Of a stretch of 64,000 bases of DNA, positions 43,206 through 52,520 are shown piece after piece. This stretch comes from Candidatus Omnitrophota bacterium. GTDB lineage: Bacteria; Omnitrophota; Gorgyraeia; Zapsychrales; Zapsychraceae. The translations under genes were made by a program, and so were the position numbers. The stretch lies in contig JADFXQ010000003.1 in NCBI GenBank assembly GCA_015233495.1, positions 5,860 through 69,859 on the forward strand, read 5' to 3'. Each line of letters opens with the position of its first letter. Position 1 is the stretch's first letter. The notes beneath the pieces are model-generated. The model saw only the letters and a list, made by a program, of their open reading frames with translations. It was not told where the DNA came from and made no database searches.

Positions 43206-43745
43206 TTAATCAGCCATGTAACCGCGCTGTTCCCGACGAGCTTCCTGATAGGCTTGACGCAACTGATCCGCGTAACGCATATGGGCGGGTTCAATATGCA
43301 GCTGGGCATAGCCCTGACGCAAAATTTCCGCGTTGATAAATAAATTATCTTCCTCCCGGAACACATACGCCACCGTATGCTGACGTTCATTGGTCTTTTC
43401 GCTGTCAAACTCCAGTTTGACTTTTTTCCCGACGACCAAACGGCGGATAAAATCCCGGGCTTGATCTTCCCAACTGATTTCGAAACTGGCCGGTTCCGCG
43501 GGCACCAGGAAACCATTTTCATCGCGCTTGACGCTATTACGCGAACGTGAAGTTTCTCCCACCGTCAAACCGATCAAGTCGACAACTTGGTCATCCTCCA
43601 AAAGGATCGTGTTCGGCCCCAAGACGTCTTTAACCACCTGATAAACGGATACGGTGTTGCCATTGAGAAAAGCGTCTAACCGGGATTGACCGAAAGCCGC
43701 GGCAGAGCTAAAAAAAACGAGACAAAAGAAAAATATTTTTTTCAT
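43206..43745 (-). CDS. Secreted thermonuclease (staphylococcal nuclease/SNase-like)
   Basis: Signal peptide MKKIFFFCLVFFSSAAAFGQ. SNc-like core (VKLEFDSEKTNERQHTVAYVF...NAEILRQGYA). Confidence 0.65.
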   Translation of the reverse strand: MKKIFFFCLVFFSSAAAFGQSRLDAFLNGNTVSVYQVVKDVLGPNTILLEDDQVVDLIGLTVGETSRSRNSVKRDENGFLVPAEPASFEISWEDQARDFIRRLVVGKKVKLEFDSEKTNERQHTVAYVFREEDNLFINAEILRQGYAQLHIEPAHMRYADQLRQAYQEARREQRGYMAD

Positions 43746-45324: not shown

Positions 45325-46095
45325 TTACTTTTCCCGGCAGGATTTTGGCTCGCCGCGTTTACGGCCAAAAATTTTACGGGCTGCCTGATACTCCGCCGCG
45401 AAACCCCATTTTTTAACCAACGCGTTCGCTTCCCGTTCAGCGTCACAAGAGACATTTCCCTTTAAAATATGTTCCAACACCCGATGGGCCAATTCATGCG
45501 CTATAACCCCTTCAATCGGCGCCGTCGACTTCGCCAGGTCATCTAAGGCCGTGCTCAATTTGATCAGAGTGAATCCGTTTTCAAAAGCCGGCGCGTATTC
45601 CGGGGAGGCGATAATTTCAGAAGAATTCCCGAACCGGGCAGTGCCGCCGGCGTAATATTCGGTGAAAACAACCGGACGGCGGCGGTCCGTGACGGTCACA
45701 AAATCGGCAAACGGGATCCGTTCCAAGACATTTTGAATCGCCATATAGACCTTCCCGGACGGGCCGCAAAATTCGTCTAAATATTCCCGCACTGCTTCTT
45801 TGCGGCTATTGGTCAGCCACTCTTGGACTTTTCCGTTTTGGATGTGAAAACTCAATAGACCGGCAAAATCTTCTTTTAAAGGATCATTGAAGGTCAACCA
45901 TTCATCCTCGCCGCGCTTTAAAAAAGTCCGCGCCTTATTGTGAGGATAAAGTTTAAAAAAATCATCCCGCGGCATACCAACGTAAACACCGTGAATTTGA
46001 ACCGGGTATCGCCCAGACGGTTCGGCAGACAGAACCAGAGGATTCAAGATTAAAAAAAATAGAATAATTATTGCTGGGATTTGGAGTTGACGCAT
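45325..46095 (-). CDS. Secreted putative zinc metalloprotease (HExxH)
   Basis: Signal peptide, then HELAH (IAHELAHRVLEH) zinc-binding motif near the C-terminus. Confidence 0.5.
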   Translation of the reverse strand: MRQLQIPAIIILFFLILNPLVLSAEPSGRYPVQIHGVYVGMPRDDFFKLYPHNKARTFLKRGEDEWLTFNDPLKEDFAGLLSFHIQNGKVQEWLTNSRKEAVREYLDEFCGPSGKVYMAIQNVLERIPFADFVTVTDRRRPVVFTEYYAGGTARFGNSSEIIASPEYAPAFENGFTLIKLSTALDDLAKSTAPIEGVIAHELAHRVLEHILKGNVSCDAEREANALVKKWGFAAEYQAARKIFGRKRGEPKSCREK

Positions 46096-46195
46096 ATGAC
46101 TCCTTATGAAAGCTGAAAGGAGAGAGGTGAGCGGTGAACGTTATTGCCGATTTGCGGCAATAACTTTATTTTTTTTCGCCTTTTGGCGAAAAAAA

Positions 46196-46269
46196 TAGCG
46201 GGGGGCGGAATTGAACCGCCGACACTGCGGGTATGAGCCGCATGCTCTAACCATCTGAGCTACCCCGCC
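46196..46269 (-). tRNA. tRNA with CAT anticodon (elongator tRNA-Met, or tRNA-Ile2 if lysidinylated)
   Basis: Acceptor GGCGGGG/CCCCGCT (G1-U72), D-arm GCTC-AGATGGTTA-GAGC, anticodon stem TGCGG/CCGCA with loop CTCATAC, T-arm GGCGG-TTCAATT-CCGCC. Lacks the initiator 3xGC anticodon stem. Confidence 0.75.
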
Positions 46270-46311
46270 ATCAAGGCTGATTCGCGAAAAACGAAGCCAG
46301 ATTGTACCGGA

Positions 46312-46614
46312 TTATCGCAAAAAAATCAAATATAAAAGCCAAACCGCGATCCCCGCGGCGATAAGATAAAAATCATTGAAATAAAAAAAATCGCGCATCC
46401 GTTCCGCGGAGGTATACACATACTCCACCGTTTCTTTCGCGATCACGCCGGCATTGCGCAGGGATAACACATCCGCCCGCTTCAATCGCAAAAATTTATT
46501 GGCAATGCGATACGCCTGCAAGTGACGCTGTTCGATCAGGTCCATCACTTTTTTTTCCGAGATTTCCAGCAGTTGTGCCGTTTCCCGAACCGATATATAT
46601 TGCGAGTTTGTCAT
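46312..46614 (-). CDS. Membrane-anchored helix-turn-helix protein (excisionase/MerR-type HTH_17 N-terminus, C-terminal TM helix)
   Basis: ISVRETAQLLEISEKKVMDLIEQRHLQAYRIANK resembles excisionase-family HTH. C-terminal LIAAGIAVWLLYLIFL hydrophobic anchor. Confidence 0.55.
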   Translation of the reverse strand: MTNSQYISVRETAQLLEISEKKVMDLIEQRHLQAYRIANKFLRLKRADVLSLRNAGVIAKETVEYVYTSAERMRDFFYFNDFYLIAAGIAVWLLYLIFLR

Positions 46615-46656
46615 TCGTCAGTCTTCCCGCTGGTTTAATTGCCCGGCGTTACTGTC

Positions 46657-47208
46657 TTATCTCACCTGCCCGGTCGAAGCCCAAGAATCAATTTGGTCAC
46701 GGTCAAATTTCCATTCTTCCCCTTTGCGCACCGCGGGAATTTTTCCGGCTTTCGCCAATTCATCAATCTCCCGCGGATCAATTTCCAAATAACGCGCCAC
46801 ATCGCTCAATGTTAACAGATTATCCTCTCCCGGGCCATTGCTTTCGGCGCGCATCTGCATCATCCGGCAGTTGCCGTCAAAAACCGCCCCTTCGACGATA
46901 TTCAACTTCGGCGTTTCCACGTCGCCCTTGAGAATCGCGGTCGGCATAAGAACCAACATCCGTTTTGCCGCAATATTGCCATTTACCCGGCCGGCAATGA
47001 TTATATTCTCGCCTTTAATATGCGCTTCCACCTTCGCCATACCCCCGATAGTCAAAGTCCCGCAGACTTCCAAACTCCCTTGAAACGTCCCGTTGATTTT
47101 TAAATTCACGGGATCCTTAAAAACCAAAGACCCTTGCATTTCCGCGTTGATCTGGATGCTCTTATCTTCTTCGGGTTTAGGTAATTGTTTTTTCATTCCC
47201 AGCGCCAT
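46657..47208 (-). CDS. Bactofilin-domain protein with C-terminal excisionase-type HTH DNA-binding domain
   Basis: Central beta-helical bactofilin repeats (NGTFQGSLEVCGTLTIGGMAKVEAHIKGENIIIAGRVNGNIAAKRMLVLMPTAILKGDVETPKLNIVEGAVFDGN). C-terminal LLTLSDVARYLEIDPREIDELAKAGKIPAVRKGEEWKF resembles HTH_17. Confidence 0.65.
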   Translation of the reverse strand: MALGMKKQLPKPEEDKSIQINAEMQGSLVFKDPVNLKINGTFQGSLEVCGTLTIGGMAKVEAHIKGENIIIAGRVNGNIAAKRMLVLMPTAILKGDVETPKLNIVEGAVFDGNCRMMQMRAESNGPGEDNLLTLSDVARYLEIDPREIDELAKAGKIPAVRKGEEWKFDRDQIDSWASTGQVR

Positions 47209-47221
47209 AGATTTTTCTCCT

Positions 47222-48196
47222 TTAATTGTTTGCCGAATATAACCGATGCGCTAATCCCGCGATCATAGCAGCATTATCCATGCAAAACGGCAAAGCGGGA
47301 AAATAAATTTTGATACCTCGCTGCTGCGCTTCGCGGGTGAGCGCCGCGCGCAACGCGCTGTTCGCCGCGACCCCGCCCCCCACGATAATGGTTTGAAATC
47401 CTGTCTGGCCGCAAGCCAAGATCGTTTTTTCAACTAAGGACCGCACAACGCAATCCTGAAACGCCGCGGCCACCGATCCGACTGAAAAACCGGCGTCGCG
47501 CTCTTTTTGACGTTTATAATAAAGCACCGCGGTTTTCACGCCGCTGAAACTAAAATCTAAAGAACCCGGTAGTTTCGCCGCGGTAAAGGTTATTCCCGGC
47601 TGGGGAAATTCCCGGGCTAAACGATCAATCACGGGACCGCCCGGATATCCCAAATTCAATAAACGCGCGACTTTATCAAAAGCCTCTCCTGCCGCATCGT
47701 CACGCGTCTGACCAATAATTCGGAATTTTTTAAAACGCTCCACCGCGAATAAGCTGGAATGACCTCCGGAAACAACCAGCCCCACCGCCGGCAAGCGCGG
47801 CATATCTTCCTTGCGGCCTTGCTCTTTAGCGATTAAAAAAGCGGCGTATAAATGCGCCTCAATATGATTCACCCTAATCAAGGGTTTGCCAAGAGCGAAA
47901 CTGAGCGCGTTCGCAAAGGAAATTCCCACTAAAAGCGAACCGATTAAACCCGGCTCCCGCGTCACGGCGATCGCGTCGATTTGGGACAAATTTAACCCCG
48001 CCGCGTCCAACGCCAGGGCAACAACCGCCTGGATCGATTCCAATTGCCGCCGGGAAGCGATTTCCGGGATAATCCCGCCGTATTTTTCATGTTCCGCCAA
48101 ACTGGACGCGACAGTATGGGATAAAACTTCCACCCCATTCTCGACAACCGCGGCCGCGGTCTCATCACACGACGTCTCAATCCCCAATATCCGCAT
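47222..48196 (-). CDS. tsaD: tRNA N6-adenosine threonylcarbamoyltransferase
   Basis: MRILGIETSCDETAAAVV N-terminus, Kae1/YgjD family HxxH metal site. Confidence 0.9.
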   Translation of the reverse strand: MRILGIETSCDETAAAVVENGVEVLSHTVASSLAEHEKYGGIIPEIASRRQLESIQAVVALALDAAGLNLSQIDAIAVTREPGLIGSLLVGISFANALSFALGKPLIRVNHIEAHLYAAFLIAKEQGRKEDMPRLPAVGLVVSGGHSSLFAVERFKKFRIIGQTRDDAAGEAFDKVARLLNLGYPGGPVIDRLAREFPQPGITFTAAKLPGSLDFSFSGVKTAVLYYKRQKERDAGFSVGSVAAAFQDCVVRSLVEKTILACGQTGFQTIIVGGGVAANSALRAALTREAQQRGIKIYFPALPFCMDNAAMIAGLAHRLYSANN

Positions 48197-48221
48197 AACC
48201 GTCTGAGCCTTTTTGGTTCTT

Positions 48222-49556
48222 TTACTTCCCCATCTTCTCGTAAACCCGTACCCCTTTGAGAACGTTCATTCCGGCGATCACTTGATTGTCGGAAAGCAGG
48301 GCCTCGCGCGCTTCTTTATCTTGTTTCGCTTTATCGGTTTTTTGAGTTGCCTGAGGATTTTTTTCCGCTTCTAATTTTTTGACATCGTCGAAAACCTTCT
48401 CGATCTTTTTCTTTTTATCGACCCGCTCTTTGCCTTTGAGGTCAGCGTCATCCTCATCCTCTTTCGCCGCGTATTTCACTTCCACGTCCGGTTTGATCCC
48501 GATTTCATGAATCGAAATCCCCGAAGGCGTGTAATATTTGCTCGTAGTCAAACGCAGTCCCGAACCATCCGGCATTGGAATCACCGATTGCACGGATCCC
48601 TTACCGAAAGATTTTTCACCTACGAGAATCGCCCTTTTGTTGTCTTTTACCGCCCCGGCGAAAATCTCGCTGCCCGACGCGCTGCCCTCATTGATCAACA
48701 CCACCATCGGCCAGGCGATCAGGTGATCGTCATTGTTGGAATAGGTGATCGAATTCTGCGAAGTCCGGCGTCCTTTAGTCGAGACAATGATCTGGCCTTT
48801 CGGCAAAAAATCCTCCGTGATCTCAATAGCGATATTCAATAAACCGCCGGGATTATTGCGCAAATCCACGATCAAACTGTCCGCGCCCAAGGCTTTGAGC
48901 TGCTCCAAGCCTTCGCGGAAGGCTTTCGCGGAACCTTCGCGGAATTCGGTCAGCCGGATATAACCAATTTTATCTTCGAGAATTTGGACGTTTTTCACAT
49001 CCTGGTATTCAATGATCCCGCGGGTGATCTTCAATTCGAAAATACGGTATTCACTTTCGCGCAATATCGTCAAATGAACATCCGTGCCGGGAGTGCCGCG
49101 CAACTTTTTCACTGCGTCGCTCAAAGAGAGATCGCGGGTGAGTTCTTTTTCAATTTTAACGATACGATCCCCGGCTTTAACCCCCGCTTTCCAGGCCGGC
49201 GAATCTTCAATCGGAGATACCACTGTCAATAACCCATCCCGCACGGAAATTTCAATTCCCAAGCCGCCGAATTTCCCTTCGGTTTCGGTCTTCAATTCCG
49301 TGTATTCTTCGGGCGGCAAAAATTGGCTGTGCGGATCCAAACCCGCCAGCATCCCTTTCAGCGCGTTGTAGATCAGATCTTTAGCCGGAATTTTATCAAC
49401 ATATTCCGTCTGCACCGTAGTCAACGCGTAACTGAACAATTCAATCTTGGAATAGAGATCGTCCTTAGTCTGCTTGTCCATTTGCGAGACCGCCAACCGA
49501 GTGACGGAAAGCAAAATTGCGGCCCCAACCAGAATCTTTAACCATGGTTTCTTCAT
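48222..49556 (-). CDS. ctpA: Carboxy-terminal processing protease (S41 family) with PDZ domain
   Basis: Signal peptide/TM, PDZ region (GDRIVKIEKE) and S41 catalytic region (GSASGSEIFAGAVKDNKRAILVGEKSFGKGSVQ). Confidence 0.85.
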   Translation of the reverse strand: MKKPWLKILVGAAILLSVTRLAVSQMDKQTKDDLYSKIELFSYALTTVQTEYVDKIPAKDLIYNALKGMLAGLDPHSQFLPPEEYTELKTETEGKFGGLGIEISVRDGLLTVVSPIEDSPAWKAGVKAGDRIVKIEKELTRDLSLSDAVKKLRGTPGTDVHLTILRESEYRIFELKITRGIIEYQDVKNVQILEDKIGYIRLTEFREGSAKAFREGLEQLKALGADSLIVDLRNNPGGLLNIAIEITEDFLPKGQIIVSTKGRRTSQNSITYSNNDDHLIAWPMVVLINEGSASGSEIFAGAVKDNKRAILVGEKSFGKGSVQSVIPMPDGSGLRLTTSKYYTPSGISIHEIGIKPDVEVKYAAKEDEDDADLKGKERVDKKKKIEKVFDDVKKLEAEKNPQATQKTDKAKQDKEAREALLSDNQVIAGMNVLKGVRVYEKMGK

Positions 49557-49571
49557 TGTTTTCTCCTTGAG

Positions 49572-51026
49572 TTAAAACGGTTTCCCGTCTGCGCCCGCTT
49601 GCAAATTTTTCTCAATCAACTCCTTGATCTTCTTCGGATTTGCTTTCCCGCCGCTTTTTTGCATGGCTTGACCGACGAGAAAACCTATCGCTGACAATTT
49701 ACCTTCGCGGATTTGCGCCACCGTGGCCGGGTTATCCGCGAGCGCCTGCTGCGCGATTTTTAAAAGTTCCTCGTCATTTGAGACCTGCCCCCAACCCTGC
49801 TCGGCGATAATCGCGGAGCAATTTTTCCCCGAATCCAGCATAATTTTTAAAACGTCTTTCGCTTTCAATTGACTGACCGCGCCTTCCTCGATTTTGCGGA
49901 TCAGGTCGACTAAATCTTCCGGTTGCAGAGTGCTCGCGGCCACCGTTATTTTTCGCTCATTCATTTCCTTCAACACGTCCCCGTTCAGCCAATTGCAAAT
50001 TTTTTTCGCCTCGGGATAAAGCGCGGCGCATTGTTCAAAAAATCCCGCCGTCAATCGATCTTGCGCTAAGACGCCCGCGTCATAAACCGAGATGCCATAA
50101 GTTTGCGTGAATCGTTCCATTTTCGCTTGCGGCAATTCGGGAAGGGTTTGCCGCATCTCTTCCACTACTTCTTCCGGGACCGTCACGAGAGGCAAATCCG
50201 GTTCGGGAAAATAACGATAATCATGCGCCTCTTCTTTACTGCGCATCGAAAAAGTCATCGCTTTATTTTCATCCCACAACCGGGTCTCCTGTACCACCCT
50301 CTGCCCGCCGAGAATGACGGCGCGCTGTCGATTGACTTCATAATCGATGGCCGCTTTCACCGCCTTAAACGAATTCATATTCTTTAGCTCGGTTTTTGTC
50401 CCGAGTTTTGCGTCGCCTGGAGCGCGAATCGAAACATTCGCGTCGCAGCGCAAACTCCCTTTTTCCATATCGCAGTCGGAAACATCCAGATACGATAAAG
50501 TTAATTTCAAAATCCGCAAATATTCATAAGCCTCTTGCGAAGAACGCAAATCCGGTTCGGTGACAATTTCCAATAAAGGCGTGCCGGCGCGGTTATAATC
50601 CGCCAAGGAACAATTCCGGGCATCGTCGTGGATCAATTTGCCCGCGTCCTCTTCCAAATGCGCCCGGTTGATCCGGATCTTTTTCGCCGCGCCGCCATCC
50701 CCGGGAATGATCAACTCGCCTTGCCGGCAAACCGGTTGATCGAATTGCGAAATTTGATACGCCTTGGTCAAATCCGGATAAAAATAATTTTTCCGGTCAA
50801 ATTTAAACTGCGGATTGATTTCGCAGTTCAACGCCAGACCAGTTTTCAGCGCATATTCCAACGCTTTTGCATTGAACACCGGCAAGGAACCAGGAAGCCC
50901 CAGACAGACGGGACAGGTCCGGGTGTTCGGGCTTTCGCCAAATTGATTCGCGCAGCCGCAAAAAATTTTGGTGTTGGTCCGCAACTGCAAATGGACTTCT
51001 AAACCGATAACCGTTTCAAATATCAT
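49572..51026 (-). CDS. gatB: Asp-tRNA(Asn)/Glu-tRNA(Gln) amidotransferase subunit B
   Basis: MIFETVIGLEVHLQLRTNTKIFCGCANQFG N-terminus. 484 aa with C-terminal YqeY-like domain. Confidence 0.95.
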   Translation of the reverse strand: MIFETVIGLEVHLQLRTNTKIFCGCANQFGESPNTRTCPVCLGLPGSLPVFNAKALEYALKTGLALNCEINPQFKFDRKNYFYPDLTKAYQISQFDQPVCRQGELIIPGDGGAAKKIRINRAHLEEDAGKLIHDDARNCSLADYNRAGTPLLEIVTEPDLRSSQEAYEYLRILKLTLSYLDVSDCDMEKGSLRCDANVSIRAPGDAKLGTKTELKNMNSFKAVKAAIDYEVNRQRAVILGGQRVVQETRLWDENKAMTFSMRSKEEAHDYRYFPEPDLPLVTVPEEVVEEMRQTLPELPQAKMERFTQTYGISVYDAGVLAQDRLTAGFFEQCAALYPEAKKICNWLNGDVLKEMNERKITVAASTLQPEDLVDLIRKIEEGAVSQLKAKDVLKIMLDSGKNCSAIIAEQGWGQVSNDEELLKIAQQALADNPATVAQIREGKLSAIGFLVGQAMQKSGGKANPKKIKELIEKNLQAGADGKPF

Positions 51027-51083
51027 CTGGTATTCCTTTAAACCAAAACCCTGCGCCGCCGACAGCCTCTTCGGGCTGCCTCC

Positions 51084-52516
<1,433 letters not shown>

Positions 52517-52520
<4 letters not shown>

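Follow-up and report, generated by a model that had tools for sequence, protein, structure and literature searches.

A bactofilin carrying a fused acidic winged helix is encoded beside a tail-anchored winged-helix protein in Omnitrophota

Bactofilins are known to act as scaffolds, recruiting client proteins through unstructured tails. In Caulobacter, the bitopic client PbpC binds polymers of the bactofilin BacA and can substitute for BacA's membrane-targeting sequence (MTS) (PMC12448750). In Bacillus subtilis, BacE and BacF bind the helix-turn-helix (HTH) region of BacR (YhbD), pull BacR to the membrane and displace DNA (PMC13649987), and in Myxococcus xanthus the bactofilin scaffold of the BacNOP-PadC-ParB/ParA system reaches DNA-handling proteins via an adaptor (PMC5703909). 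Here we describe two adjacent genes in a 64,000-nucleotide stretch of a Candidatus Omnitrophota genome (assembly GCA_015233495.1, contig JADFXQ010000003.1; hereafter the window). Open reading frame 1 (ORF1; 46657..47208, minus strand) encodes a bactofilin fused to a winged-helix HTH (183 amino acids, aa; ORF call, Pfam Bactofilin and HTH_17), and ORF2 (46312..46614, minus strand) encodes a tail-anchored winged-helix HTH protein of 100 aa (HTH_17, TIGR01764 and a C-terminal hydrophobic helix). We confirmed both sets of coordinates; the two genes are separated by 42 nt and share a reading frame. The organisation of this pair is closest to BacA-PbpC and BacR-BacEF, and it departs from both in the fused HTH, the dedicated tail-anchored partner and the fixation across a phylum. 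Full-text literature searches, which leave most subscription journals uncovered, turned up neither an account of a bactofilin fused to an HTH nor one of any bactofilin from Omnitrophota, and the database names are automatic only ('polymer-forming cytoskeletal protein', 'excisionase family DNA binding protein').

We tentatively propose, at a little under an even chance, that ORF1 and ORF2 form an Omnitrophota-specific two-protein membrane scaffold in which the acidic HTH of ORF1 docks on the basic HTH of ORF2. ORF1 would polymerise via its bactofilin beta-helix, and its basic-hydrophobic N-terminus might hold it to the membrane. Each filament subunit would display an acidic, DNA-incompetent winged helix on a flexible linker of ~12 residues. 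The docking site for these acidic domains would be the winged helix of ORF2, which is basic and nearly invariant; ORF2 itself would be a tail-anchored protein of the inner membrane with its HTH facing the cytoplasm. The contact would be heterotypic, with the recognition helix of ORF1 against the wing of ORF2, and would resemble the head-to-tail contacts of BldC, acidic side chains replacing DNA phosphates. Recruitment would be mutual, as ORF2 would help to keep the filament on the membrane and the filament would cluster ORF2. If the free ORF2 HTH binds DNA, the bactofilin could also act as a competitor or sequestering factor, as BacE/F do for BacR.

As in the Caulobacter system, the proposed contact joins a bactofilin polymer to the cytoplasmic part of a single-pass membrane protein, and in BacA-PbpC client and polymer stabilise each other's membrane association, as we propose here (PMC12448750). 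In contrast, in BacA-PbpC a short N-terminal client peptide binds the beta-helix, whereas ORF1 has a folded C-terminal winged helix and its partner is a 100-aa tail-anchored winged-helix protein without an enzymatic domain. The B. subtilis system is similar in that the gene for an HTH protein shares an operon with genes for bactofilins; however, BacR is a soluble DUF4004 protein rather than an HTH_17 protein, with no fusion and no transmembrane anchor, while here one HTH is built into ORF1 and looks DNA-incompetent and the other is membrane-anchored. Neither ORF1 nor ORF2 has a Pfam match to DUF4004, and the resemblance to BacR is functional and organisational only. Unlike the M. xanthus system, the conserved gene block described below contains no ParB-like or ParA gene, the HTHs are excisionase/MerR-like and not ParB-type, and DNA binding by the fused HTH is disfavoured.

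The core of ORF1 (aa 17-116; 46861..47160, minus strand) is a bactofilin beta-helix. Its Pfam Bactofilin (PF04519) match spans aa 18-114 with 81.8 bits against a cut-off of 27.9, and phmmer matches BacA (PDB 2n3d) and the Thermus bactofilin TtBac (6ria) at E 2e-6. In the AlphaFold2 model, the core is predicted with a local distance difference test score (pLDDT) >90 as a right-handed beta-helix, and Foldseek places this predicted structure on BacA (2n3d) with a template modelling (TM) score of 0.87 and a root-mean-square deviation (rmsd) of 1.8 Å; the Thermus bactofilin was also matched. The polymerisation-interface Phe of BacA, F130, whose change to Arg abolishes assembly (PMC12448750), is kept in ORF1: F110 aligns with BacA F130 and TtBac F105 at the C-terminal polymerisation interface and is invariant in 25/25 aligned ORF1 homologs. 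ORF1 shows each testable defining feature of bactofilins, and from the predicted fold and the conserved interface residue we infer that it polymerises.

The first eight residues of ORF1 (47185..47208, minus strand) form a conserved motif that may be a weak membrane-targeting peptide. Across 114 homologs the motif reads M-[A/G]-[L/F]-[R/G]-x-[R/K]-[K/R] and is followed by an acidic stretch; position 3 is hydrophobic in 111/114, there are 2-3 basic residues at positions 4-8, and Phe2 is found in 1/114. In the BacA MTS, MFSKQAKS, residues F2, K4 and K7 are critical (PMC12448750), and the ORF1 motif resembles this sequence in composition but lacks Phe2. Judged from its residues, intrinsic membrane binding by the ORF1 N-terminus is possible. 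An MTS is not present in every bactofilin and has no bearing on membership in the family. At the other end of the core, a flexible linker (aa 117-130; 46819..46860, minus strand) that varies in length among homologs leads to the HTH; residues 120-128 are disordered in the AlphaFold2 model (pLDDT <50).

The C-terminal domain of ORF1 (aa 131-178; 46675..46818, minus strand) is an acidic HTH_17/MerR-like winged helix with a degenerate DNA-contact surface. A preliminary description of the window had read ORF1 as a bactofilin core followed by an HTH, and Pfam, TIGR01764, AlphaFold2 and Foldseek all bear this out. The HTH_17 (PF12728) match covers aa 131-178, including the peptide quoted in that description (residues 131-168), with 42.4 bits against a cut-off of 27, and the NCBIfam model TIGR01764 'excise' (excisionase family DNA-binding) matches with 34.1 bits against 28.8. 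The modelled domain has the topology beta-alpha-alpha-beta-beta-alpha (AlphaFold2, DSSP; pLDDT ~80-85), the ~50-residue fold of BldC, Xis and RacA (PDB 6ama, 4j2n, 5i44). Foldseek matches it to DNA-bound BldC (TM score ~0.8, rmsd 1.3 Å), Pukovnik Xis, RdfS, RacA and CbpM, and the models of both HTHs, ORF1 and ORF2, superpose on BldC with TM scores of 0.76-0.87 and rmsd of 1.1-1.4 Å. CbpM (PDB 3ucs), which binds the J-domain of CbpA, uses the same MerR-like fold for protein binding; its likeness to ORF1 is one of fold only, with another partner and no link to a polymer or membrane.

The preliminary description also took the HTH of ORF1 for a working DNA-binding domain, and here the data point the other way. 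To compare charge, we counted the net charge over the 50-residue HTH domain. In ORF1 orthologs the median is -5 (range -6 to -1, n=79), and in ORF2 orthologs the median is +3 (range 0 to +6, n=78); the same medians, -5 and +3, recur in an independent metagenome set of 51 non-redundant pairs. Reference HTH_17 domains have a median of +2 (range -2 to +6, n=13), the references being BldC (+6), Pukovnik Xis (+4) and 11 repeats of the tandem-HTH_17 proteins P0151 and P0196. A hidden Markov model (HMM) search with both HTHs against 5,869 stop-to-stop ORFs from the window and 80 related loci returned the 160 orthologs only and no in-phylum control HTH_17.

In BldC-DNA structures, Lys26 and Arg30 read bases, Thr27, Thr29, Trp31 and Lys33 hold phosphates, and His46, Arg47 and Arg48 form the minor-groove wing (PMC5859096). 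We mapped these positions through the HMMER alignment register, with an invariant aromatic residue anchoring the wing. BldC is basic at 6 of the eight side-chain contact positions; in ORF1 orthologs, these positions are 4% basic and 29% acidic. The equivalent of Arg30 is Glu in 47 and Asp in 5 orthologs (52/79) and Arg in none, the equivalent of Arg47 is Asp, Glu or Asn in 69/79, and the equivalent of Lys26 is mostly Pro. BldC, Xis and RacA each present an electropositive face that includes Arg30 and a wing of two Arg residues. ORF1 has instead Glu in the helix and a wing of Asp, Glu or Asn followed by Ser, Thr or Asn, and neither its recognition helix nor its wing is electropositive. The solvent face of the recognition helix varies across species, which makes for a poor fit to recognition of a conserved DNA site. 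In contrast, P0151, a close HTH_17 relative, has Ser-Ile-Tyr-Lys and Lys-Lys-Ser-Gly-Arg at the equivalent positions and so keeps the basic surface, indicating that acidification is specific to the bactofilin fusion. These substitutions suggest that the ORF1 HTH has probably lost DNA binding.

In ORF2, as had been described, we found an HTH on the same strand immediately downstream and a single membrane pass, which is a C-terminal tail anchor. The winged helix (aa 6-55; 46450..46599, minus strand; recognition helix SEKKVMDLIE) matches HTH_17 over aa 6-51 (31.6 bits against a cut-off of 27) and TIGR01764 (30.8 against 28.8). In the AlphaFold2 model it has the beta-alpha-alpha-beta-beta-alpha topology (DSSP) and is followed by a loop, then by a juxtamembrane helix that carries a conserved aromatic motif, DFFYFNDFY (aa 69-79; 46378..46410, minus strand; AlphaFold2 and alignment) and a terminal transmembrane helix (aa 81-98; 46321..46374, minus strand; pLDDT 92-95, hydropathy). 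This tail-anchor helix lies 0-6 residues from the C-terminus in 77/78 orthologs (Kyte-Doolittle >=1.6). Foldseek matches the HTH to BldC, Xis, RdfS and RacA, with RacA as the top fold match. The domain is nearly invariant across the phylum, exposed residues included. Its electropositive features are mixed: the net charge is +3 and Lys-Lys is kept at the BldC Lys26/Thr27 positions (73/78 and 72/78), as the only remnant of the electropositive face, and Asp occupies the Arg30 position in 75/78 and Glu the Lys33 position. ORF2 could bind DNA in a non-canonical way. Separately, ORF2 aa 3-66 gave a weak match to MamR, a magnetosome protein (23.8 bits, where the cut-off is 100), which we took as generic HTH/helical similarity, and matches to part of the cytoplasmic domain of the type III secretion gate SctV/InvA/EscV (NCBIfam E 3e-4; PDB 2x49 and 7k08, E ~0.7-0.9) fell below cut-offs and are probably generic as well.

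To see how widely the pair occurs, we scanned one genome per GTDB species and found the gene in 140 species; synteny counts below are for the best 80 loci of these 140. In 80/80 species loci, the gene directly downstream of the ORF1 ortholog is an ortholog of ORF2, with 54-75% identity and, in nearly all loci, a length of 99-101 aa. The spacing is 0-120 bp with a median of 7 bp, and in 22/80 loci the genes share a 4-bp ATGA overlap. In the independent metagenome set, ORF2 is directly downstream in 75/80 contigs, and the other contigs end too early. The two genes had been suspected to work as one system, with conservation as a pair named as a check on this; the pair is conserved, and the idea gains from this pairing and from the overlaps in 22 species. 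All 80 genome loci are Omnitrophota metagenome-assembled genomes, some of them third-party annotation (TPA) bins titled 'uncultured Planctomycetales'. These 'uncultured Planctomycetales bacterium' bins (L008, L010, L011, L013 and ~30 more) carry the pair with the same synteny, and their record label is probably coarse or wrong.

A collection of 5.8 billion proteins held 906 homologs of ORF1 and 645 of ORF2, the latter nearly all ~100 aa, and the source names given for the close families of both are Omnitrophota/Omnitrophica only. Proteins identical to ORF1 and ORF2 are deposited at NCBI under a 'Candidatus Omnitrophica' metagenome-assembled genome. Both domains are present in 120/120 of the best ORF1 homologs (54-64% identity, 168-189 aa). 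When we searched 1.84 billion 50%-identity representatives with a HMMER profile, there were 23,964 matches, a number that includes bactofilins and HTHs generally; only 36 representatives reached E<=1e-30, and ~20 of these 36 are full-length two-domain proteins. The two-domain family is compact.

To look for signs of contact between the two proteins, we calculated normalised mutual information with average product correction (APC) in 68 species with ORF1, ORF2 and tsaD. The top inter-protein pairs connect the ORF1 recognition-helix positions 147 and 149 with the ORF2 wing position 40 (scores 0.525 and 0.427), as compared to a maximum of 0.356 among 15,120 tsaD control pairs. The pattern is charge-complementary: Glu147/Glu149 occur with Lys or Arg at position 40, and Ala, Thr or Ser147 with Leu, Ile or Val149 occur with Gln40. 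Glu147 is present in 22/22 species with Lys or Arg40, a Matthews correlation coefficient (MCC) of 1.0 as compared to 0.63 for the best tsaD column, and the four most discriminating columns of ORF1, ORF2 and tsaD all fall within the two HTH domains. The rule was replicated in 51 new non-redundant pairs (20/20 and 31/31) and held in 126/127 pairs overall. ORF1 positions 147 and 149 correspond to the phosphate-contacting Thr27 and Thr29 of BldC, and ORF2 position 40 to the wing residue Arg48. In the head-to-tail BldC array (PMC5859096), a contact geometry that ORF1 and ORF2 may re-use, the Thr27/Thr29 and Arg48 elements approach the same stretch of backbone; by analogy, the acidic side chains of ORF1 could stand in for DNA phosphates. 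The covariation, which lies mostly in a single clade, is suggestive of contact between ORF1 and ORF2. We dropped it as proof of contact, since mapping on a tree built from the non-HTH parts shows mostly one clade.

Several observations weigh against a docking scaffold. On that tree, 42/44 Glu-Lys (E/K) pairs belong to one clade, with two singletons elsewhere, and there is also one intermediate; Fitch parsimony counts 4-5 changes, on a tree whose bootstraps lie between 3 and 13. Because the E/K pairs are mostly monophyletic, the covariation is mostly one concerted event. Across species, the net charges of the two HTHs rise together (rho +0.43), where simple complementarity predicted a negative correlation. 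The control set for charge is small (n=13) and, with 11 members from two tandem-repeat proteins, partly non-independent. The MTS-like N-terminus of ORF1 may make the ORF2 anchor dispensable. Finally, a distant fusion subfamily (P0179/P0281) has an acidic HTH (net charge -7 in P0179) without an ORF2 partner, so that the acidic HTH there must have another or an additional ligand.

An extension of the docking scaffold, which we consider unlikely but which survives better than the other alternatives, requires that ORF2 binds DNA. ORF2 would then be a membrane-tethered DNA-binding regulator or nucleoid anchor, and the acidic ORF1 HTH, as a DNA mimic, would cover the face with which ORF2 binds DNA, gating its access to DNA through filament assembly or disassembly. 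BacE/F provide a precedent, as they bind BacR near its HTH, abolish DNA binding and keep BacR at the membrane (PMC13649987). The acidic helix of ORF1 opposite a basic ORF2 domain is consistent with such a switch, as is the covariation, which sets would-be DNA-facing residues of ORF1 (BldC Thr27/Thr29) against a wing residue of ORF2 (BldC Arg48), and an ORF2 HTH that is invariant on all faces is consistent with two ligands. However, the tail anchor fixes ORF2 in the membrane, so that it is the DNA that would have to move there, the canonical base-reading Arg is missing from ORF2, we identified no conserved operator, and the switch relies on the same ORF1-ORF2 contact that the scaffold would need. 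In its strongest form, to which we likewise give a low probability, the acidified HTH would be a built-in DNA mimic that toggles ORF2 from binding DNA to binding the filament and back, giving polymer-gated coupling of nucleoid and membrane. If true, chromosome anchoring or segregation (or transcription) would be coupled to assembly of the cytoskeleton with no need for adaptors of the ParB or PadC type.

In the preliminary description, the pair was thought to anchor DNA to the envelope. In such a tether, both HTHs would bind DNA, and the polymer and ORF2 would hold a chromosomal region at the inner membrane, in the manner of BacNOP-PadC-ParB or of RacA-DivIVA, where RacA anchors DNA to a scaffold at the pole. 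The HTH folds, the membrane partner and the pairing stand: each domain scores above the HTH_17 and excisionase-family thresholds and superposes on DNA-bound BldC as well as on RacA, and RacA is the top fold match of ORF2, which is basic (+3) and whose recognition helix opens with a conserved Lys-Lys. A polymeric array of weak binders could also act through avidity, and ParA-type ATPases recur near, or fused to, this bactofilin subtype in other lineages. The part that is not borne out is DNA binding by ORF1, whose HTH has a net charge of -5, has lost the basic contacts on recognition helix and wing (Arg30 to Glu, Arg47 to Asp/Glu) and presents a variable surface that misfits a conserved DNA site. 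In ORF2, Asp replaces Arg30 in 75/78 orthologs and Glu replaces Lys33. Pfam searches found no adjacent parAB genes in the window; no parS-like or repeat element turned up, although none was searched for. Taken together, these data make a tether of this kind quite unlikely.

Similarly doubtful is an account in which the two HTHs do not touch, so that the ORF1 HTH would recruit another client or regulate bundling in cis and ORF2 would be adjacent by operon inheritance. The distant fusions P0179/P0281, with an acidic HTH beside Volactin and a ParA-like ATPase and without ORF2, fit independent functions, the gatB-ctp-tsaD block is likewise syntenic without a functional link, and the covariation comes mostly from one clade. 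In contrast, the pairing is 100% where the locus has room and 4-bp overlaps are frequent, both families are confined to the same phylum at similar sizes (906 and 645), and the strongest clade-discriminating substitutions are in the two HTHs and not in tsaD or the beta-helix.

The reading as an excisionase (recombination directionality factor) of a mobile element integrated by a tRNA gene, suggested by the TIGR01764 'excise' and HTH_17 matches and the tRNA gene directly downstream, is highly improbable, and we rejected it on synteny and the lack of an integrase: 80/80 species share this block, which is flanked on one side by housekeeping genes, the fusion partners of the two HTHs are a cytoskeletal domain in one case and a transmembrane anchor in the other, and a search for an integrase around the pair found none, the one integrase-looking ORF, downstream in 7 loci, being without a Pfam match.

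In the window the block runs gatA-gatB-ctp(S41+PDZ)-tsaD-ORF1-ORF2-tRNA(CAT). The genes gatA, gatB, ctp (S41+PDZ) and tsaD (47222..52520, minus strand; Pfam) are the upstream housekeeping context and lie outside the proposed system, and the tRNA with CAT anticodon (46195..46270, minus strand), called tRNA-Met by ARAGORN, is the conserved downstream boundary. Upstream synteny was found for tsaD in 75/80, ctp in 65/80 and gatB in 56/80 loci, the missing cases being cut by contig or flank ends, and a same-strand tRNA(CAT) lies downstream of ORF2 in 47/60 loci scanned. The gatB-ctp-tsaD-pair-tRNA(CAT) arrangement is a vertically inherited housekeeping neighbourhood and not a mobile element, and the link to a mobile element that had been raised is not supported. 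A gene for an MgtC-family membrane protein sits between tsaD and ORF1 in 39 genome loci (for example L001:3476-3985); in the window there is no such gene, and tsaD and ORF1 are 13 bp apart (gap 47209-47221). A PP-loop ATPase (TilS-like, PF01171) follows the tRNA(CAT) in 31 loci, and tsaD, upstream, is a t6A tRNA-modification gene; given the TilS-like ATPase, the tRNA could be a lysidine-modified tRNA-Ile2 and not a tRNA-Met. Beyond the tRNA, the window encodes a 256-aa protein (45325-46095, minus strand) with an N-terminal signal-like hydrophobic segment and a HELAH motif, for which Pfam gives no match at E<=1e-5 and none of the 80 related loci contains a homolog. The region from the tRNA to an SNase-like gene (43206-43745) appears lineage-specific.

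Related architectures were seen in other sequences. P0281 (L081:1-4850; JGI 3300009777 Ga0105164_10002154) is a distant bactofilin-HTH_17 fusion with an acidic HTH and a canonical-looking N-terminus, MKFFPQKKR. Its cluster comprises an actin-family Volactin, one unknown gene, a ParA/MinD ATPase that carries a CBM48/AMPK glycogen-binding module, two further unknown genes and the fusion; an MscS-like gene comes next, and the cluster looks like a cytoskeletal or positioning gene set. P0263 (L162:184-1590; contig ERZ27245787 k141_131406) is a metagenomic bactofilin of the ORF1 subtype, 35% identical to the ORF1 core, that is directly fused to a ParA/MinD-type ATPase (AAA_31, 174.6 bits). We considered P0263 as a functional clue and found it uninformative, since the next gene on its single 2.5-kb contig encodes one protein with Mrr-nuclease and PilZ domains, not ParB. 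Among metagenomic proteins, P0196 (479 aa) consists of 8 tandem HTH_17 repeats and P0151 (231 aa) of 3. The repeats of P0151 are closely related to the ORF1 HTH, and in them both recognition helix and wing remain basic.

If ORF1 and ORF2 form the scaffold that we propose, a bactofilin with a folded C-terminal domain and, throughout a phylum, a strictly paired, dedicated tail-anchored partner would wire this cytoskeleton to the membrane in a new way. The pair would also clearly exemplify an excisionase/MerR-type winged helix turned from DNA binding to protein binding, possibly as a DNA mimic, in proteins that automatic annotation labels 'excisionase family DNA binding protein'. Omnitrophota are uncultured, ultra-small nanobacteria whose cell biology is essentially uncharted, and a universally conserved cytoskeletal module open to expression in other hosts is among the few practical routes into it.

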